Part shown: piece by piece, positions 1-35,100 of the stretch
Layout: each line of letters opens with the position of its first letter
Numbering within the stretch: the first letter of the stretch is position 1
Origin: an uncultured virus (IMG/VR IMGVR_UViG_3300013382_000005)
Taxonomy: Duplodnaviria; Heunggongvirae; Uroviricota; Caudoviricetes
Direction: 5' to 3' (one strand)
Length of the DNA: 64,000 nucleotides
IMG/VR virus record: IMGVR_UViG_3300013382_000005
Notes under the pieces: model-generated
Database searches by the model: none
What the model was told of the DNA's origin: nothing
Seen by the model: only the letters and a program-made list of their open reading frames with translations
Program-made: the position numbers and the translations under genes

Positions 1-433
1 GATAGCAGGTCAGGAGCAATTAATAGCAGATTATAATAAAAAACATAAAACGCACATTGATACTCCTATATTAAATAATCATAAAATGAATTCGTTATTA
101 GCTGACCTTGCTGATACGAATATAAAAACTATAAAGAATGATATTCTGGAAAGTCTCAATAGTATAGATATAACAGAATCAGATAATATAGAATCTATAT
201 TTAATAAAAATAAGAATCGTATTTTTTATGCCATGTCTTATTTAGGAGACAAAGCATATTGGAATGGATATGTAGATTCAGCTAATGAATTTAATATCAA
301 AAATATCAATGTCAAGTTTAACAAAGACAGCGCAGACGCTAAATCTCACCCAAATAAAATAAATCCATCTGATTATAACTTAAATGACATTCCATCATAT
401 CATGCTTTTTGCAAATGCAAGTTATCAATATAA
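1..433 (+). CDS. 5'-truncated head morphogenesis protein (SPP1 gp7/Mu F-like C-terminus; possibly the end of a portal fusion)
   Basis: Frame is open from position 2, upstream of the ATG at 86. It ends in IPSYHAFCKC, resembling the PPxHPNCRC motif, and lies directly before the protease. Confidence 0.5.
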   Translation, partial: IAGQEQLIADYNKKHKTHIDTPILNNHKMNSLLADLADTNIKTIKNDILESLNSIDITESDNIESIFNKNKNRIFYAMSYLGDKAYWNGYVDSANEFNIKNINVKFNKDSADAKSHPNKINPSDYNLNDIPSYHAFCKCKLSI

Positions 434-453
434 TTAAAAGGTCAATATAAAAC

Positions 454-16167: not shown

Positions 16168-16647
16168 ATGAAACTTAATAGTATTAAAAATAGCAATCAG
16201 GATAATAATCAAGTAGAAGTAACAGAGGAATCTACTCCTACCCTTAGTACACAGAAAGTAGAACCAGTAAAAGAGGATTTATCTGGACTCACATTAAATG
16301 AGAAGATAGAGTACTGGAAAAATAAATACAAGAAAATCTACAGAACAATTATAGATGATACTACGTTTATCTGGAGAAGGCTCAATAGAAATGAATATGC
16401 TTCTGTTGCATTTGAGACATTCAGCGATAATAAAAAGCTAGACATGTTTGAAAAGCAATTCAGATTCTGTCAGTTCTGTGTATTGTATCCTGACAATGCA
16501 ATAGAGATGATGAATGAAAGTGCAGGTATTGCTCCTGTCCTTGCTGATGAAATAGTATTTAAGAGCGGATTCAGCTCTATGTTTCCTAAGACTGAAGAAG
16601 TTACTTCTGCTGATGATCTTTCTGATGAAGATAGTGATAAGGAGTAA
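16168..16647 (+). CDS. Tail assembly chaperone (putative)
   Basis: Lies between tube genes and tape measure; acidic; FIWRRLNRNEY...CVLYP...AGIAPVL. Confidence 0.6.
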   Translation: MKLNSIKNSNQDNNQVEVTEESTPTLSTQKVEPVKEDLSGLTLNEKIEYWKNKYKKIYRTIIDDTTFIWRRLNRNEYASVAFETFSDNKKLDMFEKQFRFCQFCVLYPDNAIEMMNESAGIAPVLADEIVFKSGFSSMFPKTEEVTSADDLSDEDSDKE

Positions 16648-16653
16648 TAGTCT

Positions 16654-17361
16654 ATGAAAATTAAAAACGCTTCTTCTGAAACTAAAGAGAAACAAGATAG
16701 TGAAGTTAGCTTATCTGAATTCATTGAGTCTATAGAAGAAAAGTATCGTGATTATTTTATAGATAAGGTCGATAATGAAGTATTCATCTATACCCCTATT
16801 GGTCGAAAAGATTGGATAGATATTTGTGAAAGAACAGACTTGAATCAATTTAAAAAAGAAGAATTAATATGTTCTATTTGCACTATATATCCTAAAAATT
16901 ATGATTTCACAGAATGTCTTGCTGGTATACCTACAGAACTATCTAAGCTTATTATAGAACATTCCTATCTTAAAAAAGAAGATATGATTGATATGATCAC
17001 ATTCTATCGGAATGAAATGAATACTATAAACAATAATATAACTTGTCTTATAAACGAAGCATTCCCTAATTATGATATTGAAGAAATAGAAAACTGGGGA
17101 ATGGATCGCACCATTAAGTATTTTACAAGAGCGGAATGGAAGCTTACAAATCTTCGTGGTATGCCTCTGAAAGAGGATATTGTAACATTATTACAGCAAT
17201 CAAATGGAAGTACGGCAAGTGATGATAGCACTAATATGAAAAGCGCTGATACAGCAGAAGTAGTAGATTCTGGTGCTAATCTGACTCCAGAACGACTTGC
17301 TGAACTCAAGGCTAAATTCCCAGATATAGACTGGGGTAATCCAACTACTCATTTAAGATAA
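16654..17361 (+). CDS. Second tail assembly chaperone (paralogue of the upstream gene)
   Basis: FIYTPIGRKDW...CTIYP...AGIPTEL aligns with the upstream gene; has its own AAGGAG RBS. Confidence 0.6.
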   Translation: MKIKNASSETKEKQDSEVSLSEFIESIEEKYRDYFIDKVDNEVFIYTPIGRKDWIDICERTDLNQFKKEELICSICTIYPKNYDFTECLAGIPTELSKLIIEHSYLKKEDMIDMITFYRNEMNTINNNITCLINEAFPNYDIEEIENWGMDRTIKYFTRAEWKLTNLRGMPLKEDIVTLLQQSNGSTASDDSTNMKSADTAEVVDSGANLTPERLAELKAKFPDIDWGNPTTHLR

Positions 17362-20400: not shown

Positions 20401-23400
20401 ACATCCATTCTCTACCCTTACTGCATTAATGGATCCATACTGGCTTGAAGAAAAACATTATGAGGACAGACCTTATCCTGTAACTGGCAAGCTATTTGAA
20501 GAAGGAACTCCCTGGGGCGCAGTCTTAAATCCTACTATAGGCAATCTGATTAAACCTCAGAAAAGAATGCATCAAGATGTTCTACAAGGAACAACCATTG
20601 ATGTACGAGCTCTTATTCGCAAATATAATGAGGATGAGAAAAATAAATCTGATGCCAATAGTTATGTACAAATAGGTGGATATAATGGTGTATCCACAGT
20701 TAAAAGACCAGAATCTTCATATGGTGTTCCTGGAGAAGGCTTTGCGCCTGATTATGATGTATATTATGATACATCTAATACTGCATATTATACTCCTGTA
20801 TCTGGAAATGGTTCTGGTGGTGAAGGTGCCTCTATTTATGATAATAGCAGTATGTCTAATATGACTGGCTATTATGGCCAAGTTGCAAGCGACATATCTG
20901 CATATGATAAACTCAGAGCATCCAGTAATCCAATTGCTTTTGCAGCATCAAGAGTTATTCCGCTTGATCAGATATCTATGATAAATAGTGCTACTAAGCA
21001 AAAGAGTAGGAATAAGATATCTGGATATGCTCCATCTGGCTTTATACAAGATAGTGGAGCTTATTATACAGAAGGTGGCCCATCGTTTGATCCTCTGGCA
21101 AAACAGTTTGATAAAAATGATTTTATCGAATCACGATCTGTGGAAGAATGGCTCAGAGATGCTTCATACTCTGCAAAAGAACTTGGTGGTATATATGGTT
21201 TCGCAGTAGACTTAGCATTCCCTGCTCAACATAAATATATAGAAGCAAATGCTGGCGCAATGGCTTCATTCTCTGGTAGATTCTGGGATGAAAATGTCGG
21301 CGGCTATGGTGGAGACATCATGGAAATCGCAAGACGATTCTTCCCTCATGAAGATCATTCTGTTACTAAAATTAATAATATACAGAATACGATGCCCGAA
21401 TGGATCCCCGAGCGTTTTCATTACTCAGACCCGTACACATCACTACCCAAAGGCGACATGAGACTTCCTGGTCCAGGTTATGAAACTCTGAATGAATTAC
21501 ACCCTGATTCCTACGGGATTTACGGCAGTTTTGATAGATTCAAAATCTTAGCAGATATCGCTCCTTGGTCACAAGAATATAAACAATGGCACAGAATAGT
21601 TAAGCAACAGAATTTAAGTCCTGAAATGCAGGATGAAATCAAAGAGATAGAAGATAGAGTTAAGCGCCAAAATTCAAGACACACATTCTATAATAAAAAC
21701 TACGATATAGAAACAGAAGATATAAATGGTACTGTTTCTGAAGTTGGCAAAGATAATACCTTTAAACTATATGGTTCAGATAAGGTATATTCTGTTGCAG
21801 GAGTAGATTTAAGAAGTGGTCAGGAATTAAGTCAATTTTTAACTGCTGGTTCTGATGTTAAACTTACTGTTGATAAAAAAGATTTAAATAATGATGTAAC
21901 AGGTGCTATTGTATATGATTATTCTAATAGTGGAGCTAATGTTACAAGATCAATAATTGAAGCTGATGCTGGAACAATTAATAGAGACACATCAATTGGA
22001 GTACAAGCATATTCTGATGGCTTCTCTGTTTTAAATGCGCTTGGTGAATCTGTCGCGCATGCTCCTATTCCATTCATACATAATAAATTCTTAAGAGTGA
22101 ATACTCCTATGGAAGCCTGGGAAGAAGAAGAACTATATGGAACATCATATTCTACTTGGAATCATCCTGTAGAAGGCTATATAAAACCAGCTATAAGAAA
22201 AACTATGGCAATGACTCCAATGGCTATCGTAGCTAATGTCGCATTGACTGGAATATCTAAGTATATTGATAGTACAGATGCAAGTGATCTTATAAAAGCC
22301 GGTGCTAAATCTGCTGAAGCATTAACTAATCCATTGGCATTCGCAGGTGGTATGGCTTCTTCCCTTCTCACCATGAATACAAAATATACTAAGCTTGGTG
22401 TAGATATAGGAGAAGCGATAGGTCTTGGAGTATTAGCATATAAGAGTGCAGATAATCCTATTTTATCTACAATAACTGGTACTGCTATAGGAGCTACATT
22501 TGGCGCGCAATTCTTTAAAACTACTCATGTTAAAGGAGCTGAAGTAGGAGCTCTTGTTGGACTAGGTATATCAGCTCTCAAAAATGCTTATTTTGACAAA
22601 GATGAGATGTTTGGAGACTATGTGCCTGAGGATGCTCAAAAACGTTGGGATATGCAAGAATACTTTGATAGACTCAAATATATAAAGTATTCAGGATTAT
22701 ATGAAGAAGCTGCTCGTCAAGCAAAAGAAAAAGAAGGAGTAGACATTAAATCTATCCTTAATAGAATGGAATATGCGGAAGAAGAAAATAAAGAGCTCCA
22801 ACAAAAGCTGTTAAAGTATAGAAACAATATTCAAAATAACTCATTCTTATCTTATTCTGAACGTCAAGAAGCATTAAGTAACATAGAAGGTAAATTAGCT
22901 CAAATAAAATATAATAACGATAGTGTAGTCATTGAAGGTGGAGAATACACTAAAGCTGCTATAGCTTATAAAAAGGCTGCTGAATCTACTATTTATGGTC
23001 TTCAAGATGATGCAGGATGGTCAGAGATATTAAAAGCATTGCCCAAAAACCATAGAGACTTCTTTATGGAGTTTGCTAAAGAAACTGATGAAGATAAACG
23101 TAATGAGATACGCTCAAAAGTTTCTGATTACGAAGGTAAGGTTCTCGACCTTGTTTGGAATGAAAAGAAATCCAAAATAGAAGACAATGCAGAATATTTT
23201 ACAGATCATTATCTTCCTAATATGTCCTGGGTTGGTTGGAAACCAGACACAAGCCTTGACAATGTGCAAATGAAGACAATAGAAAATGAAGGTATGCTGC
23301 TTTCTGACTTTGGTTTCTATGATTCAAATCTTGAAGAATATGATGCACAAAATACTCCTGGTATAGATAATTATAGACAAGAAAGTTCTGCTCTTATGAC

Positions 23401-23572
23401 ACGTGCTAATCTTATTACATCAATGAATGGCTTTGGCTTATTTAATGTTGATGTAAGTTTGACACCGACAAGAAAACCAGGATTAAATATCATATACGAA
23501 ATAACAAGAATCAACGCATATAAAGCCAAAGAAAAAATCAATCAAGAATTAGGATTCAGAGCTGTGTATTAA
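17426..23572 (+). CDS. Giant virion protein, tape-measure candidate (2048 aa)
   Basis: Follows the chaperones; largely helical composition; Gly/Ala hydrophobic segments near 22210-22580; degenerate thermonuclease-like stretch near 21730-21810. Confidence 0.6.
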   Translation: MARRKKDNRRERSKRQPGLLDRIPTIVGAAAAVGISTAVLSNRSPSILSDSINKITHALGETATQLQKTNFRDFNIDTAKAAINKFASSYKEHTSQYNPINKNSLGSVFSNLAKVKSTASKIIKEESFTEGINELASKFKTGDELLDKRRFSVLNSFLRKDTKSLYNPNTDALFRFRKSATTKLGANGLFSDSEIADITNEAIEMSSLLFRKTGTTEEGFGKVTKYGGTLKSLKRYEKSLGNGSFQAKLDKLSDQLRESFLDIDSLEKRYGSASISSAKNTFAKDILNNDPLTLKQLAERYRSGDKNISHSSFMDKAVRDIEDLLSSADGERYGNLYWDKSLRIDKNGNIQNYSGINSIARKAKSFYDETIVAKVLKLDEFVNTDISPLIISNAGSFNPILEKLINKDSTSTRLTNTFLSINGKSFTYANGELNRLEDLDDIIKNVGKNSVAGKSMEKMFGADYDTGRTRGGILDFHESNKMNPVESAVSFFTKFNDPRYAKNEAKNVFGNIDTDSLDFDELEDLYGKYSDINKILQSNYDSLDKASAEKLYDSLSSLSGNNQVDELRKYLHILTEDDDAMTSSLTALASGSLSEDSLMSSKLSKELSILRSDPAKYIASNHTNNNFIPGMSRESVSAYDMLRRGVTDEAMMRLSTFSSIDEDMSSFITQVLGEGTDAADKTLNALYSSEFNNAFTDFANQSAESLQESYTNAINHVNSILQNNQKEKDKLFSIVNDNVSLLQSGFNDKEYFENEYSDNLFIQKGTSPLDLIRSLNDSEKFKSTAKQFGKQFIAGTDNPEDITSSTYGPFFFANRLLSGFERYGLGFSADAYKNTASLAANIMLKRVLPAAGVLYGLSYLNFETDNFTGSSLGEQFASGIANVDLGIRRITDTVGLSDSLRDLSISNPMFSYWSNEQEYQGYDERKEWYEDGYSPVRSGRWWSFGSSSEFRGGKISYFTPNYLRRVSSNYYDVSVYGSSDEKWKHSWIPTPRHPFSTLTALMDPYWLEEKHYEDRPYPVTGKLFEEGTPWGAVLNPTIGNLIKPQKRMHQDVLQGTTIDVRALIRKYNEDEKNKSDANSYVQIGGYNGVSTVKRPESSYGVPGEGFAPDYDVYYDTSNTAYYTPVSGNGSGGEGASIYDNSSMSNMTGYYGQVASDISAYDKLRASSNPIAFAASRVIPLDQISMINSATKQKSRNKISGYAPSGFIQDSGAYYTEGGPSFDPLAKQFDKNDFIESRSVEEWLRDASYSAKELGGIYGFAVDLAFPAQHKYIEANAGAMASFSGRFWDENVGGYGGDIMEIARRFFPHEDHSVTKINNIQNTMPEWIPERFHYSDPYTSLPKGDMRLPGPGYETLNELHPDSYGIYGSFDRFKILADIAPWSQEYKQWHRIVKQQNLSPEMQDEIKEIEDRVKRQNSRHTFYNKNYDIETEDINGTVSEVGKDNTFKLYGSDKVYSVAGVDLRSGQELSQFLTAGSDVKLTVDKKDLNNDVTGAIVYDYSNSGANVTRSIIEADAGTINRDTSIGVQAYSDGFSVLNALGESVAHAPIPFIHNKFLRVNTPMEAWEEEELYGTSYSTWNHPVEGYIKPAIRKTMAMTPMAIVANVALTGISKYIDSTDASDLIKAGAKSAEALTNPLAFAGGMASSLLTMNTKYTKLGVDIGEAIGLGVLAYKSADNPILSTITGTAIGATFGAQFFKTTHVKGAEVGALVGLGISALKNAYFDKDEMFGDYVPEDAQKRWDMQEYFDRLKYIKYSGLYEEAARQAKEKEGVDIKSILNRMEYAEEENKELQQKLLKYRNNIQNNSFLSYSERQEALSNIEGKLAQIKYNNDSVVIEGGEYTKAAIAYKKAAESTIYGLQDDAGWSEILKALPKNHRDFFMEFAKETDEDKRNEIRSKVSDYEGKVLDLVWNEKKSKIEDNAEYFTDHYLPNMSWVGWKPDTSLDNVQMKTIENEGMLLSDFGFYDSNLEEYDAQNTPGIDNYRQESSALMTRANLITSMNGFGLFNVDVSLTPTRKPGLNIIYEITRINAYKAKEKINQELGFRAVY

Positions 23573-23627: not shown

Positions 23628-23665
23628 AGTATATTATAAATGTTTCTTTGAGAGGATAATTTTTA

Positions 23666-26600
23666 GTGAAACGATCAAATAAAGTTAGATATAAAAAATA
23701 TTCTTTACAAAATATACAGGAGCAATCTGCTCAGACTCAAAAAAATACATTTGATGTATTTAGCGACATAACAAGAGATATTTACAATGCTCGTATGGAT
23801 CGTTTTATTACAAATGGATCTACAGAGCATTCTCTTATTATACAACAAAGAAGATTTGATGCTGTATCGGTTTCTCCTGCTTCTGATAATTTATTAAAAG
23901 GACTTATAGGTCTTACGTTACCTAAGACAAATACTCCTTCTAATCTTATGCATTCTACAGTAAATAGAGCTGTTAAATACACGTATCAAAAGACTCCATA
24001 TAGAAATAACCTATATGAATTCAATCAGTCTTTGGATGCTCTCAAAAAAGCTGTGAATACTGGCAATGCAACTGCTTATATATTTGACCTTGAAACTGTA
24101 ACTGGTAAGAATGCAAAGAATAAAGAGCATTATACTGCAATAACAGAATTATCTATAAAGAGCGCTACATTAGGTTCTGATGGTAAATTTCTTGAGACTA
24201 CCGGAGATTCTATTGAAGGAATCATTGGATTCAACGCTGAACAAGAAGGCAATGTCAGAAACATGCTCGGAGATTATCTTTCCGGTAAAAGGAAAATTGA
24301 TCCGAAAAGAATGTCTGAAGAGCAAAGAGTTGCTTTTACAGAAATTCTTAACTTTGATTATGCATTTCAGAATGGCGGAGTATCTTCATCTGCTGAAATA
24401 ACTGGTGGAGGTTTTAGACTTTATAAAACCAAATCCAAATTGTCAAGAGAAGAGTTAGATGCAAGAGTTAAATCCATGTCACAGGGCGATCTTATTCAAG
24501 CGCTTGACAGAGGTATCTCTAAGCTTCGTGAAGTACATGACAATTCTGATGCAGATATGGCGTTGCAAGAATATGCAAAAAGACTTCAGTCTGTTGATGG
24601 TAAGAATATATTTGCTGTTGGTGCTAATATACGCCAATATGATATTAATGTATCGAGAGCATTAGGTTTGCTTAATGGCGATCCAACAAGAAATGGTATT
24701 ATAGATATCACTGAGCTTGCACAGCATCACAATGCACTTACTGGAAGTTCTACTCGTGCAGGAGCACAACAGTCTAATGTATTTAAGCAATTAGGATTAT
24801 CATTACCTAATGGCATGGTTCCTCATATTGCATCAACAGATACATATATGTCACTCGGAATCTTAAATAAGACCCTTGATCAAGGTGGATGGATAGATCA
24901 GAATTTAGCAGCTGGTGACAAAAGGCCAAAATCTGAATTTAAAATAGGTGGTATATATCGTGCCGGAGATACTGTTGATGCCCCAATATCTTTTGGTAGA
25001 GGAAAAGATGGCACAATAATATCTTCTACTGGTTATACTTATGATCCATTAAATAAGAATCATCAGTTACGAAGAAATTATGGTTACAGTTTTGGACTTC
25101 AGAAAGATATGTCCTATGAGCTTACCGGACATGAAGTATTAGACATATCTCAATTATCTGAAGAACAAAAAACAAGTTTCAGAGAAATGGCTGGCGATAA
25201 ATATCTTGGCAGTAAAAATCTGCATGTAGTTACTATGGCTCCTATACTTGATGCATCAGACCCAGAATATACTACTGAATCATTTACAAGAACCATTATA
25301 CTTGGTGAGCAGGATTTTCAATCAGCTATAGGTTCATTAGAACATGTAGGTAATACAAAAATTTCTAAAGATGGTAAAAAGGCAAATATATTTTTTGCTG
25401 GCTATAAACCATCTGATATGAAGAATGGATCTACTATAGAAACTCATAACCTTGAAAGTACTGTAAGATCTTTTGAAGACAATCCATTCAAAATGCTTTC
25501 AAGCATGCATTCATATACATCTACTGATGTTGCTCATAAAGAACTAGTAGATCAATTGTCTTCTGCCATCGCCACAGGAGATCAAAAGCAAATAGATTTT
25601 GTAAGGTCAGAACTCGCAAAATCTATGCATGCATTCTATGCTAAGAAGAATAATGGTATAGAGTTAACTGGTAAGATGGCAATGCATGCAGAAAGTTTTG
25701 CTAATATGTCTGAGCTTGTTCCAGTATTTAAGGACTATATGCGAACTGAGCATGGTATATCTGATGTTACTGATTATACTGAAACATTTAATCAAGCCAT
25801 TAAATCCTTTGTAGAAAATCTGACTATTCAGCCTAAAAATAGTGGGTATACCGGTCAAAGACCTATTAATGTAGGACACATGGTTAAATCCAAGCCAGTT
25901 ACCGGTGATGTTCTTACGTTTAATATAAGTGGCATAACCAGAGATACAGCGCAGCATGGTTCTATGACTCTTAATTTTAATGACTATAGAGGAGAAAATA
26001 GATATAAGCTTGCTGAAAGATTATGGAATGCTTCTGGATATAAAGCATCAGACTTTAAAGATACTGATGAATATAAAAAGGTTCAATTACTTAAAAACTT
26101 TACTGAATCTCTAATAGACGAAGATTCATATTCTGGAGTAAAGACTGCTGGATCAGGAATTAAAAAGAATCAAGCTGTATTAGATAAATTAGTCAATGCA
26201 GGTATATTAAGCTTTAATTCTGAATCTTTTGTCTATGGTGTATCAGATATATTTGATGGAGATGTTTCTGCATCGCAACTTATTGATAGAATAAGTGGAT
26301 CAATACCTGATGAAACCATAAAATATCTTAAAGATACGCAAGACAAGAGTTCTGTATTATCTACCATGATATATGACGCTCTTAAAGAGAGCGGAGTCAG
26401 AACAACGAGCGCAGAAACAAGAATGTTACCTGAACTTAGGCCAGAAGAAACGTTTTTGTTTTGGGGACAAAATGCCGCAGTAACAAGAGTTAGATCAATG
26501 GATCAGGCTAAGGATCTATTTAAAAAAACGCTTGAGGCAACCCCAATAATCCGTACAGTTCCTGCGTCTCATGCACTATCAAAAGACCAGAAAAAAACTA

Positions 26601-29600
26601 CTATTAATAGTATGATGTCTGCTCTTGTAGATGAAGAAATCGATCCTATTCATGGTTCTAAATTTGCAAACTTCTTATCTACCAGAGGATTTACTCAAGA
26701 AGAGATATCTAGAAAAGCTATTACAATTGGTGATACTATAAGTGAATATCAAGACTATCTTAGTCATTTAGTATCAGCGTATAGCGAAGCCGGACTTGAC
26801 TTCTCTATCACAGATAATGGAATTTATGCAAGAGATTCTGCATCAAAATACGTAAAGCTTAATCTACCTGAAATCAGAAGATATGATAATGGTACTGTAT
26901 ACATTAAATATGGCGGACAGGATGTAGCCATAGAATCAAGTGCCGTAATACATGATGGTAAAATTAAAATCCGTTCTCCATTCAGTAACAGAACTGGTAA
27001 GGCTATTAATAACTCTAATCGTACTATTGCCGAAAGTGAACGTCTTGGAAATAAAGTGACTATAGAAACTCTCACACATCAAATACAAGAAGACTTCAGA
27101 TATAATCTGGCTCAAGCTGGTGAAGCATTCCATGAAACATCTTCTAATAGGTTTACGTCTGGTGGAACACTTAATGTAGTCGATATTGTTAGCAATATGT
27201 TTGGTGGACAAGGAAGTCTTGAATCAATTGGTGCATTAGGAAACTTTGCCTCAACAAACCCAACTGATTTCAGACGCATGAAAGATCTGTTTACAGAATT
27301 CAGACAAAACAATGCTGATAAACCAATTGATAACATACCAAGTATAGGACAAAAGTTCTATGAGTTATTTACAGCCAATGCTCCTACAATATTTAATTCA
27401 ATAGCTGAATCAGGTGCTGTTGCAGACGATAGTGTTCGAAATATATTTGCAAGTCTCGCTCCATTCGCAACACAAGAAAAAACTATGGCGGGTGGATCTT
27501 ATTTTATAGGAACACCAAGATATTCAACAGCCATGAGCGGTTTCTTCAATCAGAAACGTAATACCGGTTTCCAAAATGCTAAATCACCTATGAGTATGTC
27601 TGCCGAAAAACTTACTTCTATTGATGGTGTCCGTACTGGTAGAACTATTGAAACTGAAGAAATGATTAAGGCATTTTCTGGCAACACTGAGACAGTTGAT
27701 TCTGTAAGAATAAAAATGGCTCATATGAATCAACGTGAAGTATATGACCGAATAGAAAAATATATTGATTCAGGTGCTATAAAAACTATTAAAGATGGTT
27801 ATAGCGAAGATACAACTAAAGCAGCATTAGGTGTTTTATTAGCAAGTAACGTTGAGAATGATGGCGCATTTGTTTCTGGCGAGCTTGCCAGAGCATTACC
27901 TCAAGCTAATGTCAATACAAAATCAATCGATCTTACAAGAGTCAATTTTAATGGTATAAGGTCTAAAAACAAAGAAGATGTTATAAAAGGTAGAGATATG
28001 ATTCCTCAATTCTCTATCGATCCTAATAGTGGTGCTGTAACAATAGAATACTCTAAGAGTTTCTTTGTTAAACAGGGTGAGAATCTTGTTATGCTTGAAA
28101 AAGATAAAACCTTAGCTGCGCAAATGACTACTACATACACTACAGCCCAAAAGGATTACATTGCTTCTATAAGATATTTCAACGAAAATGGAGTAGAATT
28201 GTCCGAGAGACAAATAAATCAAGCACTTGCCGCATTAAAACTGGATCCTGCTCTTTATGGAATGAATAATCAAGAAGTAAATGATGCAGTCAGCAAGATG
28301 CTTAAATCAAAAGGAATCACATCTACACTTAAATTAAATCCTATTGATGTTGCAACCAAAATAGGTTATGGTGAAGAAAAAACATTTGCAACTCCATTAC
28401 TTTTGGCATTTGGTGGAACACAAGTACAGAAGGATATTCTAGCTAAATATTCTGAGAAAGACAAGCGTGGTATTCTTGGTAGCGCTTCTGGTCATATTTT
28501 GAGTCAGGATGCATTTGATGTTATAGCAAACTATGTTGGTATGTCTAATGAAGATGTTAAGATAATGCAGCGTGAAATGCTTGCACCTACTATGTTTTGG
28601 AAAGGTGCATTAAAGGGCACAAGTGCAGCAGATGCATTACTCTTTACTAATATCAACGAAGTTAAACACCAGAGTATATCTGATTCTGTTGCTATTATGA
28701 CTCAGGACATAATAGATACATACAAAGATGACCCAGATAAAATAAATGCTATATTAAAAAAGGTTTATGGAGATAGTGCCATCTATGATCCTAAAAGACA
28801 ATCTGCGCTCATAAGTAGTAATCTTGATTATATTAATATGGATGAACTTACAAAGGCATATAAAACAATTTCTCGTAAATCTGGAGATATAGCAACAAGT
28901 ACTGTATCTATTATTTCTGCTGATGACTGGAAAGCAGGAAAAGTTACTGGTAGTATAGCTAAAGATTTAGCACAAGTCAAACAGGCTTATCTTAACGGTG
29001 ACATATCTTCTGATGAAGCAAGTAGAATGCAAGACCAGATAAGACAAAGATATGCTCAAGATTATCGCATGGAAGGCACTAAGCTTAGTCAACAGGAAAA
29101 GAATATCTTTGGAACATATAAATATAATGATAATACTTTGTCTTCTTTTATCGGCGCAGAATCTGATGATGAATTTATATCCAGCACTCAAAAAGCTCTT
29201 GAACAACGTGGCATATTGTCAAAAACAGATGGATTATATGCATTAACAGACCAGTATAGTAAGAATACTGAACCGATTTATTCTGGTACTTATGCAGCAA
29301 TAGATAAAATAATGAAGAATGGATATGATTATGAAATATCTACCAATCCATTAGGTATCGCTGACAGAAAATATCAGGCTAAGGAAATTATTGATGATTA
29401 TCGACATAATATAGAACCAATAAACAATACTGATAATTTTGTTCTTAAAGAGGATCTAATTAAAAAGAGCGGCATAAATACCGTCTCTGCATCTCAAATG
29501 GCTATACCTACTGGAGATATAGCAACAGAGATGCTAAAAGATCCAAATAATCCATTTACTCATGATACAGTTATTGATCTTGGAGAAAGATTTAGCAATG

Positions 29601-32014
29601 ATAGGTATCTTGCTGTAAAAGGATTAAACCCTAAATTCTATGATGACACATTAATTAAAACTCAATATCAAAAAGAATTTTCTTCGCTTAGAAGAGAATC
29701 AGAAATGTTATCTGCATTAGATGAAGATAAGCTTGATAGAAGAATTATAGATAGTCGTTTTAGTGGGCGTAATCTTACTAAGTCGGAAATGCAACAGGAA
29801 TTACAGCAGAGTATTCTTTCGCATAAGCAAAATATACTTGCACAGCAAGCAAATCTGCTCGGCGGCAAAAACTCAGTTGCAGCCTCTATAATGTCTGAAC
29901 GTGCAGATATGAGTGCGATGCTTGAGTCTCAGACTGCTACTATACCAATTGGTAGTAAGATGGAAAGCCTATATGATAATTTATCTTTTGAAGGTACATC
30001 AATTAAAGAGCATGTAAGCAAAGGTCATTATATAGATTTTGCTGTTGTAAACCCTGATGACATAAAACAAATGGGCATATTAGATAATGCCGATGAATAT
30101 GTTGATTATCTAAAGAAAGACCGATCTGATTTTTATAATACGCTAATGGGACAAGTAGGACAAGATGCATCAAATGAAGATATAATGATGCAGGCTATGA
30201 GAACAGAAGGTATTAATATGTATGCCGGACGTTATCCTACTGTTCATGAGCATAGTGTTATGGGTGTCAGAATGTATGCAAGTGATGATGTCCAAAGAAA
30301 CACCATAAGGCTTCCACAGTGGACTCAGAAGAAAATGAAGAACGATAATGACTCAGACAAAGTCAGTGTCTTTAATATCTCTGAGGACTTTATGCAATCG
30401 CAGCAAGTAGATACTACAAACATTGCTATCCAATCTGCTGAAAATAAGACAATCGGAGATAAAGTAATTCAAGATTATATGGAAGGCAGGAGCAGTGACA
30501 ACTTTGATCCGACTATCGCTGCAAGAGAACGTATGGTATTTGGTCATGCATACAGAAATATTGCAGACTCATCTGAATATAATGATGTTCAGAATCAGAT
30601 TAATCAAAGCCAGTATAGAAATGATTTTATTGATTTGTATTCTAAGGCACAGAGTGCAGCTAATCCTAAAGAAGGATCTTATGCAGATGACATTTTTGCA
30701 GAGTTAGTTCAGCAAAGACAAAGTGACCAAGGATATGATGCGAACTTTGCATATGAAATGAAAAGTCTATACATAGGTAAGCATCGTATGGATGAATCTC
30801 TTGTTGCAGAGATAGCACAGTCTAGTAAGGGTAAGGTCGGTTTTATAAACAATGCAGTAAGTACTTATACTAAAATAGGCGATCAGTTTACAACTGGCAT
30901 GATAGGTCAAGTTGGAGACGATGCTGAACAAAAACTCAGATATGAAGCTGCCAATGAATTGTTTAAAAAACAACGTGGAGACTTGATAGAAAATATTATC
31001 AATGCAAAGAATACTGCTGGTGCTGACCAATTAACCATAGTTTCAGATATGATAAACAATATGGGGATCATAGAAGGAGAATATAATAAAGATAAGGTTG
31101 GTATAGCTAAAGAAAAGCTTGCTGGTATCATAGATACTGCCATTGGTAGTAAGTATGAAGACTATATTGCTAGTTCCGCTGATACCGGTACATCTATAGC
31201 GAAGTATTTAACAAGTCAAGGATTTGACATAAATGATAAGAGTCAAATGCCCGAAATGCGAGCAGCTCTAGCAAATCTAGGTGTCGATGTTATGTCTGAA
31301 ACTTCTCGTAGAGCTAATATTGACTTTATGCATAGGTCAAAAGTTGGAATATCTGCGTCTGGTGGTTATTATATTGATAATATCGATCTTAGAACTACTT
31401 CTGACAATGGACTTACATATAGTATAGATTATGATATGACATTGCGTGATAGAGAGCCTAAGCGTGTTTCGCAGCAGTTTATTGAAAATAATGGCGACGC
31501 TATAATGCATACAGCGAAAATAGATACAGAATCAATTGCTAAAGAAGCATCTGAAAACGTTGCCAAAACAACTTCATCTATGGCATCTGGCAGCACTGCT
31601 AAAGTATTATCTCAAGCTATGAAAAACAATGTAAGTAAAAACATTGCTTTAGGTGCTCTTGGTGTTGCAGCATCTGTTCTTGCAGTTGGAATTATTGGCG
31701 GCAATCCATCTCATGCTCCACAAGATGATGCACAATCTGTTCCCAAAGACGCTTATAGATATGATAACTTTGATTATGGCACTGGTACTGTTATACAGTC
31801 GCCTCCAATGCAAAATCAAGGATATGTTGTTAATATGAGGGCATCTACAAATGGTTCTTATAGTGAAGCTCAAAGAAACATGGTTCAATCTGCTCAACAA
31901 AGTTATAGCGTTCCTGGTGGTAATATGAGTGTGTCTGTAAGACATAACTTCTCTTATTCTGCTAATCAGAATAATGATAAGTATATCGAAGGAATTCTTA
32001 ATAGATTAATGTAA
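23666..32014 (+). CDS. Giant protein (2782 aa): N-terminal DEDDh 3'-5' exonuclease plus putative single-chain two-barrel RNA polymerase
   Basis: GAGAGGA RBS and GTG start. Exonuclease motifs IFDLET, GANIRQYD and HIASTD. Beta-like ENDGAFVS and TKIGYGEEKT. Beta'-like GRYPTVHEHS...IRLP...MKNDNDSDKV. Hydrophobic helix near the C-terminus. Confidence 0.65.
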   Translation: MKRSNKVRYKKYSLQNIQEQSAQTQKNTFDVFSDITRDIYNARMDRFITNGSTEHSLIIQQRRFDAVSVSPASDNLLKGLIGLTLPKTNTPSNLMHSTVNRAVKYTYQKTPYRNNLYEFNQSLDALKKAVNTGNATAYIFDLETVTGKNAKNKEHYTAITELSIKSATLGSDGKFLETTGDSIEGIIGFNAEQEGNVRNMLGDYLSGKRKIDPKRMSEEQRVAFTEILNFDYAFQNGGVSSSAEITGGGFRLYKTKSKLSREELDARVKSMSQGDLIQALDRGISKLREVHDNSDADMALQEYAKRLQSVDGKNIFAVGANIRQYDINVSRALGLLNGDPTRNGIIDITELAQHHNALTGSSTRAGAQQSNVFKQLGLSLPNGMVPHIASTDTYMSLGILNKTLDQGGWIDQNLAAGDKRPKSEFKIGGIYRAGDTVDAPISFGRGKDGTIISSTGYTYDPLNKNHQLRRNYGYSFGLQKDMSYELTGHEVLDISQLSEEQKTSFREMAGDKYLGSKNLHVVTMAPILDASDPEYTTESFTRTIILGEQDFQSAIGSLEHVGNTKISKDGKKANIFFAGYKPSDMKNGSTIETHNLESTVRSFEDNPFKMLSSMHSYTSTDVAHKELVDQLSSAIATGDQKQIDFVRSELAKSMHAFYAKKNNGIELTGKMAMHAESFANMSELVPVFKDYMRTEHGISDVTDYTETFNQAIKSFVENLTIQPKNSGYTGQRPINVGHMVKSKPVTGDVLTFNISGITRDTAQHGSMTLNFNDYRGENRYKLAERLWNASGYKASDFKDTDEYKKVQLLKNFTESLIDEDSYSGVKTAGSGIKKNQAVLDKLVNAGILSFNSESFVYGVSDIFDGDVSASQLIDRISGSIPDETIKYLKDTQDKSSVLSTMIYDALKESGVRTTSAETRMLPELRPEETFLFWGQNAAVTRVRSMDQAKDLFKKTLEATPIIRTVPASHALSKDQKKTTINSMMSALVDEEIDPIHGSKFANFLSTRGFTQEEISRKAITIGDTISEYQDYLSHLVSAYSEAGLDFSITDNGIYARDSASKYVKLNLPEIRRYDNGTVYIKYGGQDVAIESSAVIHDGKIKIRSPFSNRTGKAINNSNRTIAESERLGNKVTIETLTHQIQEDFRYNLAQAGEAFHETSSNRFTSGGTLNVVDIVSNMFGGQGSLESIGALGNFASTNPTDFRRMKDLFTEFRQNNADKPIDNIPSIGQKFYELFTANAPTIFNSIAESGAVADDSVRNIFASLAPFATQEKTMAGGSYFIGTPRYSTAMSGFFNQKRNTGFQNAKSPMSMSAEKLTSIDGVRTGRTIETEEMIKAFSGNTETVDSVRIKMAHMNQREVYDRIEKYIDSGAIKTIKDGYSEDTTKAALGVLLASNVENDGAFVSGELARALPQANVNTKSIDLTRVNFNGIRSKNKEDVIKGRDMIPQFSIDPNSGAVTIEYSKSFFVKQGENLVMLEKDKTLAAQMTTTYTTAQKDYIASIRYFNENGVELSERQINQALAALKLDPALYGMNNQEVNDAVSKMLKSKGITSTLKLNPIDVATKIGYGEEKTFATPLLLAFGGTQVQKDILAKYSEKDKRGILGSASGHILSQDAFDVIANYVGMSNEDVKIMQREMLAPTMFWKGALKGTSAADALLFTNINEVKHQSISDSVAIMTQDIIDTYKDDPDKINAILKKVYGDSAIYDPKRQSALISSNLDYINMDELTKAYKTISRKSGDIATSTVSIISADDWKAGKVTGSIAKDLAQVKQAYLNGDISSDEASRMQDQIRQRYAQDYRMEGTKLSQQEKNIFGTYKYNDNTLSSFIGAESDDEFISSTQKALEQRGILSKTDGLYALTDQYSKNTEPIYSGTYAAIDKIMKNGYDYEISTNPLGIADRKYQAKEIIDDYRHNIEPINNTDNFVLKEDLIKKSGINTVSASQMAIPTGDIATEMLKDPNNPFTHDTVIDLGERFSNDRYLAVKGLNPKFYDDTLIKTQYQKEFSSLRRESEMLSALDEDKLDRRIIDSRFSGRNLTKSEMQQELQQSILSHKQNILAQQANLLGGKNSVAASIMSERADMSAMLESQTATIPIGSKMESLYDNLSFEGTSIKEHVSKGHYIDFAVVNPDDIKQMGILDNADEYVDYLKKDRSDFYNTLMGQVGQDASNEDIMMQAMRTEGINMYAGRYPTVHEHSVMGVRMYASDDVQRNTIRLPQWTQKKMKNDNDSDKVSVFNISEDFMQSQQVDTTNIAIQSAENKTIGDKVIQDYMEGRSSDNFDPTIAARERMVFGHAYRNIADSSEYNDVQNQINQSQYRNDFIDLYSKAQSAANPKEGSYADDIFAELVQQRQSDQGYDANFAYEMKSLYIGKHRMDESLVAEIAQSSKGKVGFINNAVSTYTKIGDQFTTGMIGQVGDDAEQKLRYEAANELFKKQRGDLIENIINAKNTAGADQLTIVSDMINNMGIIEGEYNKDKVGIAKEKLAGIIDTAIGSKYEDYIASSADTGTSIAKYLTSQGFDINDKSQMPEMRAALANLGVDVMSETSRRANIDFMHRSKVGISASGGYYIDNIDLRTTSDNGLTYSIDYDMTLRDREPKRVSQQFIENNGDAIMHTAKIDTESIAKEASENVAKTTSSMASGSTAKVLSQAMKNNVSKNIALGALGVAASVLAVGIIGGNPSHAPQDDAQSVPKDAYRYDNFDYGTGTVIQSPPMQNQGYVVNMRASTNGSYSEAQRNMVQSAQQSYSVPGGNMSVSVRHNFSYSANQNNDKYIEGILNRLM

Positions 32015-32123: not shown

Positions 32124-35100
32124 ATGTCCGAAAATAAATCGATTCTTTCATATTTATATAATCATAATTATAATGAAATAGATCCAAGTAATTTCGTGCT
32201 TCCCACTACGAAAGACTTCCATTCTACTGAATTACCATATAAATTAGAACAACAATTAGAAGCTGGCAAAGATAACGACTTTACCAGAATGCTATATTTT
32301 ATAGAGAAGCCGTATTCTGAATGTCCAGGATATTATGATGAAGACAGAGTTATTATAGTCAAAGGTAAACCTAATCTTCGTGGTGAAGATATAGGTAAGT
32401 TCGATGCCGATACTATGTACTTCCCTGTCAGTGATTTGAATGACAATAATGCTAAGATTTCTTATAATGGAAATCTTTTTACTGTCAAAGAGTATCTGCA
32501 ATATTCAAGTGCGAATTTTGGAGATGCATCTGAAATTGGCGTCCGTTTTATTGGTATAAATGCACCTGAGACATTTAAGTATAAAATAGTACTTGCTACA
32601 GATTCTGGCATTCCTCAGAAAATAAAAATTGCTGAAATAGCAAAAGATTCAAAACATCAATATCTCTACGATACAGAGTCTGATGATTATAAAAATGATA
32701 CTATGAAATTCTTCTATAAGAATATAGATGGTATGTATTATTATTGTCAGGCTACTGAATATCCTGATTATTCTGTTCCTCATACAGATACTGACGGCTC
32801 TATATACTATACAACAGAGTTAGCTTATAAATATATTTATAAATCTGCTGATGCTAATGGAAGCAAAATAAGCCATGAGATGGCGCAAAAAATGATTGAG
32901 CTTATAGGAGATAATGAATGTGTCCTTATGCTTGATCATAATATGCTTAATTCTAAATCTGGCAGTTATCCCACTACTTATGATCAATATGATGATTCAT
33001 TGCTTGGTACAATAAAAAGTACTATAGAGTCATTGAGCTCAGTAAACTCTGGCCCTAAATATTCTGGATTTTCTGGATTCGGGCAAGACGGTTATGGACG
33101 TTTTCTTGGATGTCTATATGTTAAAACTCTTATTCCTGGACTACCAGAATCAATACAAAACAGTATCGGAGAACAATGGATTAATGTAACTAAATATCTC
33201 TTATACTTCTATGGGCCTGATGGAACTGTCAATCATGATTTGAGTCTATCTTTTAATGAGTATTCTCCTACTCACGTAGCAAATTATAACTTTGCTTCCA
33301 GTGCCTTTAAGGTATGGACATATGATAATAGTAAGAAGCGTATAGAAGATATGCTTGATAATGCGTCTTTTGATAGTATTACAAGACAAAGAGAAATTCA
33401 GAAGCAGGTTTTAGGATTCGACTTTAATACACAGTTAAAAGACTGGACAGTTATGATTGGCGATTATGTTTTCTTAATCCCTCCCACTTCTATAAGATGC
33501 ATGACTCGTAATAGTTCTGAAGCTGTGCCACTGATCAGATCTCGTGGATCTGCAATTAAAGAGACTCCACAAAGCGAGCGAATGCTTGAAATGACTCTGT
33601 ATTTTAATGATGAGTCGGGTATTAATGGAATTGAGATAGAAGTACCAGCTACAGAAGATGGCGAAGATCGCAGAATGGATGAGAATACTTTAGCTCCTAC
33701 TGATGAGAAGCTTAAGTATTACATGAATGGTCTCAGAGCACTTATATCTATGTTTAAGTTCTGCCCATTCCTTCCTATTACAAATGAATATATTAATAAT
33801 ACTCTCAATATAGAAGCAGTAGCTCTATCCAGTCTTTATATATCTACGGTTCCTAATTTTCCTAAGTGTATAGCTGCTACTATCCAACTTGTTGAATTTA
33901 ATTATCATGCATATATGTCTGAGATTCCTCTTACCGGAGATGAATCTGCTGAGACTATTATGTATAGTAATTTATTTGAAAAATGTATTGATTTTGATGC
34001 TCTGAGATACTATTATCAAAAACCTTTATATCGTGGCGAACTAGCATCCAGATATTCATTTGACTCTCCAGAATACCTTAACCTAACATACGGTGGGCGC
34101 ACCGCATTACAGCCTATGACATTTGATGATTCTTCTATTGAGTTTTATATGCCTGATAGTAATCATCTTAATACCTTACTTCAAGTTAAGATGGAGTCTA
34201 TGAGCAGACCAATTAAATCACAATATAAAGTTACTGATGATGTAAAAGCATGGGCTGCTGAACTTGGCAAATTATATCCAATATTACAAAATGCAAAATC
34301 AACTAAACAATATATTGATTTATATAACTTTATAAATTATGGACCAACAGATAAAAATAAAAATCCAATATTTGACTCAGTTGCTGTAACTCGCGATAAT
34401 GACTTTTTATTTACATTAGAAGATATTAACAAACATGAACCGTCAGTCAAATATGAAGATCTCGCAAAAACGTGGGATCAATTGACTTATAGTTCTTACT
34501 ATTCTGATATCTTTAATGAAGGTCTAAATCCTGATAATCCATATCAATTTTCTATAAATAACTCATATATAAAAAAATATTACATAGATTCTGGATTGAG
34601 ATGGAAAACAGGAGACGGTTCATTATATTTTATCTATATAAATTATATTGACATAATTCGTGATATTTTTGTTATGTATAATAATGATATTATAAATACA
34701 TATACTTATACAGGCGAGTCGATAAATATCACAACAAGACAAGGATTACAAACCAATAAAAACAATATAATTAATTTCTTAAAAAATATTTCTATTGATC
34801 TTGATAAAAATTATTCTAATTACTTCAATGATAATGGAGAATTCAAAATCGATTTATTTACATCAGTAGATTCTGATAATCATTTTGCATTTGATTTTGA
34901 AAATGCAGATTCCTACAAATTAATAGAATATTGTTTTAATTATTATACTATTGGTTCAGAAGATAAAACTCAGTTTGAATTACCTTCAGATGTAATGCAA
35001 ACTACTGTAAATAATATTAAAGAAGATATAGATCTTGACACAGAAAATTCGTTTAAGTTTATAAAATATCCAAATGAATCTATGCTACAAAGTCTTATCG

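Follow-up and report, generated by a model that had tools for sequence, protein, structure and literature searches.

Does a single protein of 2782 residues, encoded in the tail module of an uncultured phage, combine an RNA polymerase (RNAP) with an exonuclease, and does the phage carry it into the host inside its own particle? The question is raised by P0001, an open reading frame (ORF) in a DNA stretch of 64,000 nucleotides, the whole of which we call the window (Table 1). The original prediction, made from motifs, took it for an exonuclease-RNAP fusion and a candidate virion RNAP. We consider it likely that P0001 is a multi-enzyme giant virion protein with an RNAP and an exonuclease, in a contractile-tailed jumbo phage of the 0305phi8-36 lineage, which probably brings in a transcription enzyme of its own along with its DNA.

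The translation bears out the gene itself. The ORF is intact and all quoted strings were found where they had been placed, namely GRYPTVHEHS from residue 2188 (nt 30227), NDNDSD at residues 2226-2231 (nt 30341-30358), ENDGAFVS from residue 1397 (nt 27854) and TKIGYGEEKT from residue 1564 (nt 28355). Homologues share the start site (N-terminal consensus MK.KRSNKV), exonuclease motifs lie near the N-terminus (FDLET 140-144, N321..D326 and H387..D392), and the C-terminal hydrophobic helix is present as one strong segment, the top Kyte-Doolittle window.

Table 1. Features of the P0001 gene and its neighbours in the window (residue numbers refer to P0001).
Feature	Coordinates	Strand	Evidence or remark
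Two small ORFs, slot of split tail chaperonin genes gp143/gp144 of 0305phi8-36	16168..17361	+	position alone
2048-aa giant upstream of P0001, homologous to 0305phi8-36 gp145 (annotated as virion structural protein)	17426..23572	+	BLASTP
Shine-Dalgarno-like GAGAGGA	23650..23656	+	9 nt 5' of P0001 GTG start
Whole gene P0001, 2782 aa	23666..32014	+	intact ORF, GTG start
Predicted DEDDh (DnaQ-like) 3'-5' exonuclease domain, residues ~134-420	24065..24925	+	AF2 pLDDT ~85-95 (115-420)
Residues 421-1339, no fold assigned	24926..27682	+	AF2 pLDDT mostly 50-80 over modelled 421-1200
Two-barrel RNA polymerase-like core, residues 1340-2480	27683..31105	+	AF2 pLDDT 83.7, pTM 0.78, RNAP structure matches
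Beta-like (DPBB-B) region, residues ~1344-1580	27695..28405	+	single-chain RNAP alignments
Invariant E1571-K1572 pair	28376-28381	+	50/50 each
Predicted DPBB-A, beta'-like catalytic double-psi beta-barrel, residues ~2082-2238	29909..30379	+	structure matches
R2189-x-P2191-x5-S2197, R.P.LH..S-like strand	30230..30256	+	R 53/55 (2 K), P 55/55, S 51/55
Predicted metal-binding triad D2227-N-D2229-S-D2231	30344..30358	+	each Asp 55/55
Candidate bridge helix, 57 residues, 2359-2415, including near-invariant G2392	30740..30910	+	model helix 1020-1076
Conserved C-terminal module, hydrophobic glycine-rich helix and GYVVNMRA-type domain	31553..32011	+	HMM 49/50 full-length members
Hydrophobic helix, residues 2660-2678	31643-31699	+	within C-terminal module
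3061-aa giant downstream of P0001, a baseplate hub / cell-wall-degrading protein	32124..41309	+	PHROG 20474, 2e-178
gpJ-like baseplate wedge protein, end of conserved block	42889..43674	+	PHROG 6 'baseplate wedge subunit' 5e-9; gp151 position

General searches returned little for this protein. P0001 had 0 Pfam matches at E<=1 (RNase_T included), nothing meaningful in PHROGs and no match to PDB sequences by phmmer, and tblastn with P0001, P0007 and P0048 against 50,697 GenBank phage records gave 0 matches at 1e-3. Pfam found nothing on 17 family members, no RNAP family match came out of Pfam, PHROGs or NCBI-type searches, and PF05183 (RdRP / YonO-like) in particular had no match in P0001 (E<=1), in the 17 members or in genomes G000-G002, G000 being the present genome and G001 and G002 related ones. 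When 1.84 billion representatives were searched with a profile, 52 matched at E<=1e-3, nearly all of 2.5-3.4 kaa, and the family consists of about 55 giant unannotated proteins (2.4-3.4 kaa) from phage contigs of ~180-250 kb. The architecture is shared by most of the 50 members of at least 2400 aa, with the beta' motif in all 50, the beta-like region and the C-terminal module in 49 each and the exonuclease in 47.

Cultured carriers of full members were reached through the hub gene and the family HMMs, not through tblastn, and they are three Bacillus jumbo phages, WH1, Edson and KLEB27-3. For instance, gp095 of vB_BceM_WH1 ('virion structural protein') matches the HMMs of the exonuclease (7e-11), core (3e-14), motif (2.5e-13) and C-terminus (1.5e-7). 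Edson 0920 and gp034 of vB_BauM_KLEB27-3 ('structural protein') are also full members by the family HMMs, with C-terminal matches of 1.4e-7 and 1.9e-5, while 0305phi8-36 gp146 matches the C-terminal HMM weakly. For WH1 and KLEB27-3, we found no publication behind the label 'structural protein'. Family proteins carry the labels 'hypothetical', 'structural' or 'tape measure', since there is no Pfam or PHROG model for them.

For the fold of the core, we modelled residues 1340-2480 (1141 residues) with AlphaFold2 without templates. Foldseek gave 233 PDB matches at E<=1e-3 (best 5.6e-6, prob 1.00), and the best 50 of the 233 are all chains of multisubunit RNAP entries. In an unfiltered VIA comparison with 48,161 PDB chains just 7 reached Z>=8, all of them RNAPs, namely QDE-1 (10.5), Thermus-phage P74 gp62 (8.8) and beta'/Rpb1-type chains. 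P23-45 gp96 scored 7.0 (model 4..1128). A second VIA comparison gave Z 11.0 with QDE-1 7y7r_B (rmsd 4.1, 295 aligned, model 5..1131), 8.9 with both P32 gp64 and P74 gp62 and 8.5-9.3 with beta' chains, where Z 8-11 on a 1141-residue model is a moderate score, the typical best Z for unmatched models being 7-8. Across the VIA runs, beta'/Rpb1 chains scored Z 7.2-9.3. In BFVD the core matched viral RNAP subunits, a 'minor tail protein' (2.3e-9) and an uncharacterised protein of ME3 (6.8e-8). By AF2, Foldseek and VIA, residues 1340-2480 are thus predicted to fold as a two-barrel RNAP, which supports the reading of the P0001 core as a single-chain two-barrel RNAP.

In the beta'-like part of this model, the designed double-psi beta-barrel (DPBB) 7dww_A was placed on the triad-bearing barrel with 82 of its 86 residues (rmsd 1.9, Z 6.1, model 743..899), CDC48-N barrels superpose at model 745..914 and beta' chains over model ~582-1130 (VIA), and the loop that holds the triad joins helix 879-885 to strand 893-898. 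The model thus gives P0001 a predicted beta'-type DPBB with a DxDxD triad. The original prediction had hung on a DPBB fold and on conservation of this triad, and in the HMM alignment of the family D2227, D2229 and D2231 are each present in all 55 members, as are G2182 and P2191. Together with the RNAP-like fold of the core, this upholds the candidate RNAP reading. GRYPTVHEHS likewise proved to be conserved as an R.P.LH..S-like strand at R2189, P2191 and S2197, and the family profile aligns the R.P..S...DxDxD stretch with phiKZ nvRNAP gp55 (E 0.019), where the strand itself falls on 'RNPTLQRGS'. The G-to-S change at residue 2230, which had been called unusual, is real but is a lineage variant and not an oddity (S 31, G 22, A 1, E 1; n=55). 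Judged from the alignments, conservation of DxDxD and the other motifs across the family is more than chance. Downstream, model helix 1020-1076 is followed by further helices, beta' alignments extend to model ~1100-1140, and at least 90% of the family retain G2392, which is G1053 in sub-range numbering; this helix may correspond to the bridge helix.

Upstream, the beta-like region of the model is beta-rich. The two motifs proposed there fared differently. Near TKIGYGEEKT, the invariant E1571-K1572 pair is joined by a second Lys 5-7 residues upstream in 49 of 50 members (within 2 alignment columns). K1572 and this Lys are candidates for the two basic residues with which a beta-type barrel faces the triad. 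At ENDGAFVS, the proposed beta ED motif holds in part. Of 50 members, 47 have a Glu in either of two neighbouring columns, and just 9 have D1399. The alignments of QDE-1, P74 gp62, P32 gp64 and P23-45 gp96 begin at model residue 4-6 and reach ~1130, whereas beta' chains alone begin at model ~555-740, and it is from these whole-chain alignments alone that a second (beta-type) DPBB is predicted upstream in the same chain. The connector between the barrels is long (~500 residues) and clamp-like.

The exonuclease half of the proposal is borne out as well. The predicted catalytic residues D141, E143, D326, H387 and D392 are each present in all 47 aligned members, and the model has a DnaQ/RNase T fold, matching ExoI 1fxx_A at Z 14.0 (rmsd 3.3, 186 aligned) and Pol III epsilon 1j53_A at Z 12.4 (165 of 174 residues) in VIA. 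The best 50 VIA rows are all DnaQ-fold (exonuclease-type) domains, Foldseek matches the region to RNase T/TREX with prob 1.00, and the family profile finds ExoI/TREX-like exonucleases in PDB at the N-terminus (E 0.006-0.1). Residues ~134-420 therefore look, in the model, like an active DEDDh 3'-5' exonuclease. Neither Foldseek nor VIA gave a structure match outside the exonuclease in the model of residues 1-1200.

To place P0001 in the particle, we compared its gene slot with that of 0305phi8-36. The order of chaperonins, giant 1, giant 2, hub, gpV and gpJ is the same. By BLASTP the upstream giant matches gp145 (1e-57), WH1 gp096 (2e-50) and MTATph1 CDS26 (2.5e-53), and the downstream giant matches gp147 'baseplate hub' and its relatives (tblastn/BLASTP; 1e-64 against the 0305phi8-36 counterpart). 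Searches of the flanking giants against PDB by phmmer were uninformative, and neither giant shows similarity to the P0001 C-terminus. The original prediction had put P0001 between tape measure and hub, which has to be corrected, as the upstream ORF is the gp145 homologue and P0001 itself fills the slot of gp146, the hypothetical tape measure. The 0305phi8-36 genome paper (PMC2147016) bases the 'tape measure' label of gp146 mainly on length, and no ruler-like region was identified in P0001. In the 0305phi8-36 record, gp145 and gp146 are annotated 'identified as virion protein by mass spectrometry'. Both gp146 and its counterpart in Moorella MTATph1 have weak exonuclease and C-terminal similarity to P0001 without the RNAP core or DxDxD. 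This means that the structural role of the slot needs no polymerase, and that the mass spectrometry (MS) detection of gp146 carries over to P0001 only through position and the C-terminal module.

P0001 might instead be an active RNAP that is expressed late, shares an operon with the tail genes and stays out of the virion. Host-type promoters would suit such an enzyme, since genome G000 contains 9 perfect TTGACA-17-TATAAT promoters (8 with extended -10 TG) at 15.9-29.2 kb, which serve other genes and indicate that some of the genome, perhaps its early genes, is transcribed by host RNAP. We regard this alternative as unlikely, because the slot lies between virion protein genes on both sides and is kept across distant phages, the conserved C-terminal hydrophobic module is common to P0001 and the MS-detected gp146, carriers annotate P0001 homologues as structural protein, and a late product can serve early transcription only if it is packaged. 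Another protein of the genome, P0074, is a lead for a second, smaller RNAP. It has no Pfam match, no PDB match by sequence or profile and no tblastn match in phages; against 0305phi8-36 orf99 by BLASTP the GAD.DGDK motif alone aligns (E 0.19), and against the P0001 core by hhalign again the motif alone (probability 0.75%, E 0.075).

A different enzyme activity is also conceivable. Archaeal PolD is a two-barrel DNA polymerase, and P0001 could be a two-barrel DNA polymerase or a primase-like enzyme, delivered or made to start replication, with the DEDDh domain as proofreader. DEDDh domains are classical proofreading partners of DNA polymerases, many structural neighbours of the exonuclease are polymerase editing domains, searches of G000, G001 and G002 turned up no DNA polymerase of family A or B, and the selectivity for NTP or dNTP is not readable from sequence. 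Nevertheless we hold this to be quite improbable. The best 13 rows of the unfiltered VIA comparison of the core are all RNAPs, beta'/Rpb1-type chains among them, PolD is absent among the best 50 rows, G001 and G002 each encode a Pol III alpha (E 6e-31 and 3e-80, respectively), and the P0001 gene lies in the tail module, away from replication genes. Absence among the best 50 core-model matches listed, which applies to crAss gp66 as well as PolD, is no evidence of a different fold.

The core-less relatives in the same slot, 0305phi8-36 gp146 and MTATph1, and the tape measure annotation of the positional homologue gp146 would also suit a purely structural tape-measure or ejection protein in which the enzyme folds are inactive relics. 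This is very improbable, for the triad is kept in 55 of 55 and the DEDDh residues in 47 of 47 although the members are just 14-20% identical, and invariant catalytic residues in otherwise divergent members are the signature of selection on catalysis; besides, the models of P0001 are largely globular, not an extended ruler. Chance DxDxD strings do turn up in further long ORFs of these phages, hub proteins among them, but there is next to no prospect that the motif resemblance is mere chance in a long protein, which is refuted by the core fold matches and the 55/55 triad, since all members have the motif, the fold was matched independently of it, and it is aligned with phiKZ gp55 by the profile.

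For the multi-enzyme virion protein that we favour, we infer packaging and ejection from synteny and annotation, along with its template, the synthesis of RNA and not DNA, and the role of the exonuclease. P0001 would be incorporated in the tail or baseplate-proximal part of the virion via its C-terminal module, sheath contraction would expel it, and the hydrophobic helix would keep it at the membrane channel. Its core would then make RNA on the first DNA that enters, giving host-independent pre-early transcription and possibly aiding DNA pull-in, while the exonuclease would process 3' ends of nucleic acids. More speculatively, exonuclease and polymerase might form one injected machine that couples DNA entry, end processing and first transcription, an extension we offer only tentatively. 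At the entering end of the linear genome, the DEDDh domain of such a machine might resect the 3'-ended strand, or it might be a dedicated proofreader that trims RNA 3' ends, though we would not count on it. Its QDE-1-like core might transcribe exposed single-stranded DNA without a host-type promoter while membrane-anchored at the tail channel, which we think rather doubtful too.

If the favoured reading is true, the principle of the virion two-barrel RNAP reaches contractile-tailed jumbo phages of the 0305phi8-36 lineage, P0001 is a second, unrelated RNAP in the tape-measure slot, and the strictly conserved exonuclease partner is an addition to the theme. As full members are found in culturable Bacillus phages, the idea is directly testable, and a slot protein with and without the polymerase core in one lineage is a natural experiment on the recruitment of enzymes as tail cargo.

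To our knowledge, virion-delivered two-barrel RNAPs are proven in few phage groups, the phiKZ-like, crAss-like and Thermus P23-45-like phages. P23-45 gp96 is described as a tape-measure-fused virion RNAP by Chaban et al. (2024, PMC10770324). Like P0001, it has a single-chain two-barrel RNAP core in a giant tape-measure-slot protein with a membrane segment, and both genomes may contain a second, smaller RNAP elsewhere; its structure 8h2n_A aligns with the P0001 core over 263 residues. However, the two have no detectable sequence similarity, and P23-45 is a siphovirus while the P0001 phage is a contractile-tailed jumbo myovirus. The RNAP lies at the N-terminus of gp96 and in the C-terminal half of P0001, gp96 is clampless in contrast to the long connector of P0001, and P0001 has an N-terminal DEDDh exonuclease with no metallopeptidase found. 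According to the preprint (bioRxiv 10.1101/2020.03.07.982082), gp66 of crAss-like phi14:2 is a virion-packaged two-barrel RNAP which, as in P0001, is part of a very large protein whose gene adjoins those of further giant virion proteins, but the lineage is podovirus-like and no exonuclease is described there. BFVD matches of the P0001 core to crAss-like proteins are weak (E 8e-3).

Within the own lineage, 0305phi8-36 gp146 resembles P0001 in its slot between the gp145 and gp147 homologues, the C-terminal module and the weak exonuclease similarity, but it lacks the RNAP core and DxDxD and its exonuclease-like segment is in mid-protein. QDE-1 of Neurospora crassa, the RNA/DNA-dependent RNAP of RNAi (PDB 2J7N/7Y7x), ranks first among the structural neighbours (Z 10.5-11.0, 289-307 aligned, both barrels), and together with the nvRNAPs gp62/gp64 it fits the core better than P23-45 gp96 does. 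It is one chain with a beta-like and then a beta'-like barrel and a DxDGD-type triad, but it is a eukaryotic cellular enzyme without exonuclease or membrane module and has ~12% identity, and PF05183 (RdRP) does not match P0001. SPbeta YonO is a phage single-polypeptide DPBB RNAP and in this resembles P0001, but it is of ~100 kDa, has no exonuclease and is not known to be virion-associated, and no sequence similarity to P0001 was found. The known YonO-like RNAP of the lineage is 0305phi8-36 orf99, assigned to the RdRP family (PMC2147016; PMC7824862); unlike P0001, it is a separate non-structural protein of 1246 aa and matches PF05183 at 1e-20. The sole lead from P0001 to PF05183-type enzymes is Atlas (0.84). 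By its model, P0001 may work like the PF05183 RdRP / YonO-like enzymes, while membership of that family is not supported by sequence.

No description of an exonuclease-RNAP fusion of this type was found in the literature, and WH1, ME3 and 0305phi8-36 are all absent from Supplementary Data 4 of Chaban et al. (PMC10770324). Going by the predicted structures, the P0001 family appears to be a new variant of the virion two-barrel RNAP theme of P23-45 gp96 and crAss gp66, and it may be one of the 23 RNAP families aligned by Chaban et al.

The second of three giant ORFs standing in succession on one strand encodes the focal protein, in which an N-terminal exonuclease is predicted to be joined to an RNA polymerase-like core; its homologues share the same start point. 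The window covers 49462-113461 of a 114-kb IMG/VR virus record (CheckV completeness 48%), and related contigs are 180-253 kb long. PHROGs identified the sheath, the baseplate wedge and other structural genes, so the phage is contractile-tailed. Two ORFs directly after the sheath gene are positional equivalents of the tail tube paralogues gp141/gp142 of Bacillus phage 0305phi8-36, their PHROG label probably being misleading. A large serine integrase closes the structural block and an IS66-family transposase is encoded upstream of the window; the phage may be temperate or a carrier of mobile elements.

Coordinates of features in the window and in the whole 114-kb record (G000:C1)
Feature	Sequence	Coordinates	Strand	Remarks
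Major head protein	window	3598-4818		PHROGs
Tail sheath	window	9212-12175		PHROGs
ORF after sheath	window	12523-13281	+	PHROG 9206 'major head protein', 1e-37
ORF after sheath	window	13397-15082	+	PHROG 9206 'major head protein', 3e-40
First giant ORF	window	17426-23572	+	2048 aa
Second giant ORF (focal)	window	23666-32014	+	2782 aa; GTG start; GAGAGGA 9 nt upstream
ENDGAFVS	window	from 27854		within focal ORF
TKIGYGEEKT	window	from 28355		within focal ORF
GRYPTVHEHS	window	from 30227		within focal ORF
NDNDSD	window	30341-30358		within focal ORF
Third giant ORF	window	32124-41309	+	3061 aa
gpJ-like baseplate wedge protein	window	42889-43674		PHROGs
Large serine integrase	window	61352-62782	-	PHROG 95, 1e-116
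RNase H	record	6411-6938	-	Pfam 2.7e-44
RNase H	record	7768-8250	-	Pfam 4.5e-19
~33-nt motif	record	9392, 12305, 16167, 18547	+	four copies
IS66-family transposase	record	10497-12128	+	
TTGACA-17-TATAAT promoters	record	15939-29218	eight on +	nine copies
P0074	record	18889-22089	-	1066 aa; L006:892-4089 (-)

To model the core, residues 1340-2480 were submitted to AlphaFold2 with a 31-sequence alignment and no templates (mean pLDDT 83.7, pTM 0.78; model residues 1 to 1141 count from residue 1340). In PDB, Foldseek found 233 matches with E<=1e-3 (best 5.6e-6, probability 1.00), and the best 50 of these are all chains of multisubunit RNA polymerase entries. After re-scoring with VIA-align, single-chain enzymes ranked highest: QDE-1 reached Z 11.0 (rmsd 4.1 over 295 residues, model 5..1131 on chain 680..1142) and the Thermus-phage non-virion RNAPs P32 gp64 and P74 gp62 Z 8.9 (model 5..1131), while beta'/Rpb1 chains had Z 8.5-9.3 with alignments starting only at about model residue 555-740. 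We also aligned the model, independently of Foldseek, to all 48,161 representative chains. It turned out that the seven chains with Z of at least 8 were all RNA polymerases (QDE-1 10.5, P74 gp62 8.8, M. tuberculosis beta' 8.4, vaccinia 8.3, Pol II 8.2, Pol I 8.2 and archaeal A' 8.1), as were the 13 best rows throughout; P23-45 gp96 aligned over model 4..1128 at Z 7.0. Unmatched models commonly reach Z 7-8; the top score of the predicted core exceeds this, its neighbours belong to a single enzyme class, and the Foldseek result agrees. A designed minimal double-psi beta-barrel fits model 743..899 (82 of 86 residues, rmsd 1.9), and in this barrel the loop that joins helix 879-885 to strand 893-898 carries the Asp triad. 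A second, beta-like barrel is proposed from one observation, the point in the model at which alignment of the single-chain enzymes begins. BFVD added viral RNAP subunits, a metagenomic 'minor tail protein' (2.3e-9) and, from Acinetobacter phage ME3, an uncharacterised protein (6.8e-8). The family profile aligned its R.P..S...DxDxD stretch with phiKZ nvRNAP gp55 at E 0.019, which is marginal alone and falls exactly on the catalytic motif.

For the N-terminus, a model covering residues 1-1200 has mediocre confidence as a whole (pLDDT 68.6), but residues 115-420 reach about 85-95. Foldseek returned RNase T/TREX with probability 1.00, and in an unfiltered scan ExoI matched at Z 14.0 (rmsd 3.3, 186 residues) and Pol III epsilon at Z 12.4 (165/174 residues), with the DnaQ-like exonuclease fold in all of the 50 best rows listed. 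No fold was assigned to residues 421-1339. All 47 aligned members keep the DEDDh residues D141, E143, D326, H387 and D392, which bears out the exonuclease half of the fusion that had been claimed.

The focal protein itself had no match in Pfam, PHROGs, PDB sequences or GenBank phages, nor did 17 diverse family members in Pfam. A word-based search found five close homologues (28-88% identity), and IMG/VR holds two further loci with the same three-giant layout. The profile of the core, run against 1.84 billion representatives, retrieved 52 proteins at E<=1e-3, nearly all of 2.5-3.4 kaa and none a named polymerase; where the source names family members, they are 'hypothetical protein'. Conservation was counted across all the members retrieved, aligned by HMM. 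The strings quoted in the original prediction were found by translation at the sites claimed for them, and its catalytic motif is borne out as well: G2182, P2191, D2227, D2229 and D2231 are kept in 55 of 55 members, R2189 in 53 and S2197 in 51. The G-to-S change that it called unusual is real, with Ser before the last Asp in 31 of 55, but Gly occupies the position in 22, so at this position the canonical DxDGD varies between lineages. Further upstream, E1571-K1572 is kept in 50 of 50 and a second Lys lies 5-7 residues before it in 49 (within two alignment columns); of the proposed beta-like ENDG match, 47 of 50 members have the Glu, in either of two neighbouring columns, but just 9 have the Asp. 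Among the 50 members of at least 2400 aa, the beta' motif occurs in 50, the beta-like region and the C-terminal module in 49 each, and the exonuclease in 47, its HMM missing P0026, P0035 and P0051. Since distant members share only 14-20% identity overall, these invariant residues indicate, at the level of sequence, selection on catalysis in polymerase and exonuclease alike.

In 0305phi8-36, the synteny reference, a tail tube paralogue is followed by two split tail chaperonins, gp145, gp146, the hub gp147, and gpV-like and gpJ-like proteins; its record lists gp145 as a virion protein by MS and gp146 as 'hypothetical tape measure protein', also a virion protein by MS. The 2048-aa ORF is a clear homologue of gp145 (1e-57) and the 3061-aa ORF of gp147 (1e-64), so the focal ORF takes the position of gp146. 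The baseplate hub proteins matched by a fragment of the 3061-aa ORF are those of 0305phi8-36, three other Bacillus jumbo phages, Moorella phage MTATph1 and ME3. Prediction and comparison together establish the folds, as modelled, the catalytic residues and this gene slot.

We searched the slot proteins from six cultured phages with the family HMMs, the E-values coming from very small target sets, and found full members in three: WH1 gp095 (2515 aa, 'virion structural protein'; exonuclease 7e-11, core 3e-14, motif 2.5e-13, C-terminus 1.5e-7; ADHDGD), Edson 0920 with similar values, and KLEB27-3 gp034 (2434 aa, 'structural protein'; exonuclease 4e-14, core 6e-15; ADYDGD). In the same slot, ME3 gp36 (ME3_36; L015 9933-14744; 1603 aa, 'hypothetical protein'), the ME3 protein found in BFVD, matches the motif HMM weakly (E 0.002-0.006; REP...S...GGDHDQD) and lacks an exonuclease by the family HMM; this vB_AbaM_ME3 protein looks like a shorter, exonuclease-less form of the polymerase giant. 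Gp146 and the MTATph1 gene show weak exonuclease and C-terminal similarity, and no polymerase core by the family HMMs. The MTATph1 middle giant (L010, 8277-15633) appears split by a transposase insertion, with an exonuclease-like part in CDS0027 and the C-terminal module in CDS0031, downstream of the transposase. These HMM results make the slot protein modular: judged by sequence comparison, it has a shared C-terminal anchor, to which most forms add an exonuclease and one large branch a polymerase core as well.

Upstream of the window, nine perfect TTGACA-17-TATAAT promoters cluster within 13 kb, eight with an extended -10 TG, and none occurs elsewhere in the 114-kb record, structural region included. 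They look host sigma-A dependent and are probably early, and host RNAP clearly transcribes some phage genes; a virion RNAP would therefore serve a pre-early subset only, or have another role. Also encoded in this region is P0074, an ORF with KFPSPSERG...GADCDGDK, which lies near 'RdRP domain' clusters in the protein Atlas (0.95; 18 of 30 matches belong to a set in which 30% of the members carry PF05183), is 72% conserved in the related genome G001 and has 45-88% homologues on contigs of about 180-217 kb. Pfam, PDB profiles, BLASTP to 0305phi8-36 orf99 and hhalign gave no confirmation of it as an RNAP, and it is a candidate second, non-virion YonO-like enzyme. That the focal giant is instead a replicative polymerase is weakened by the Pol III alpha encoded in G001 and in G002, another related genome.

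Other elements were also seen there. An intergenic motif of ~33 nt with the core TGTGAGGATCCTAAT (palindromic AGGATCCT) occurs between minus-strand genes and could be a phage-specific promoter or operator; close to two of its four copies is another repeat, TCCAAAAAATCCCT..GTTT, that resembles a minus-strand terminator. Two separate RNase H genes stand close together, near an SF1 helicase (33628-36873), an AAA ATPase and a HipA_C-like kinase-domain ORF.

We infer that the giant is packaged in the virion from its slot, from the C-terminal module that it has in common with its relatives and from the annotations of the records. It would be ejected from the particle and anchored in the membrane by its single hydrophobic helix (residues 2660-2678), where the polymerase core would make RNA on the entering DNA, and the exonuclease would act on 3' ends of nucleic acid. 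Full-text literature searches returned no description of the family or of any exonuclease-RNAP fusion. For 0305phi8-36 and phage c-st, the relevant passage of Iyer et al. (PMC7824862) names YonO-like enzymes only, and WH1, ME3 and 0305phi8-36 are absent from the table of viruses with two RNAPs in Chaban et al., a comparison that excludes the family alignments of that paper. The published precedent is P23-45 gp96, a tape-measure-fused vRNAP proposed to stand at the membrane pore and transcribe pre-early genes during DNA entry (PMC10770324). The giant would follow the known principle of gp96 and of crAss gp66, but it belongs to another family and phage lineage and has another domain partner, the exonuclease, and these three are what is probably new here.
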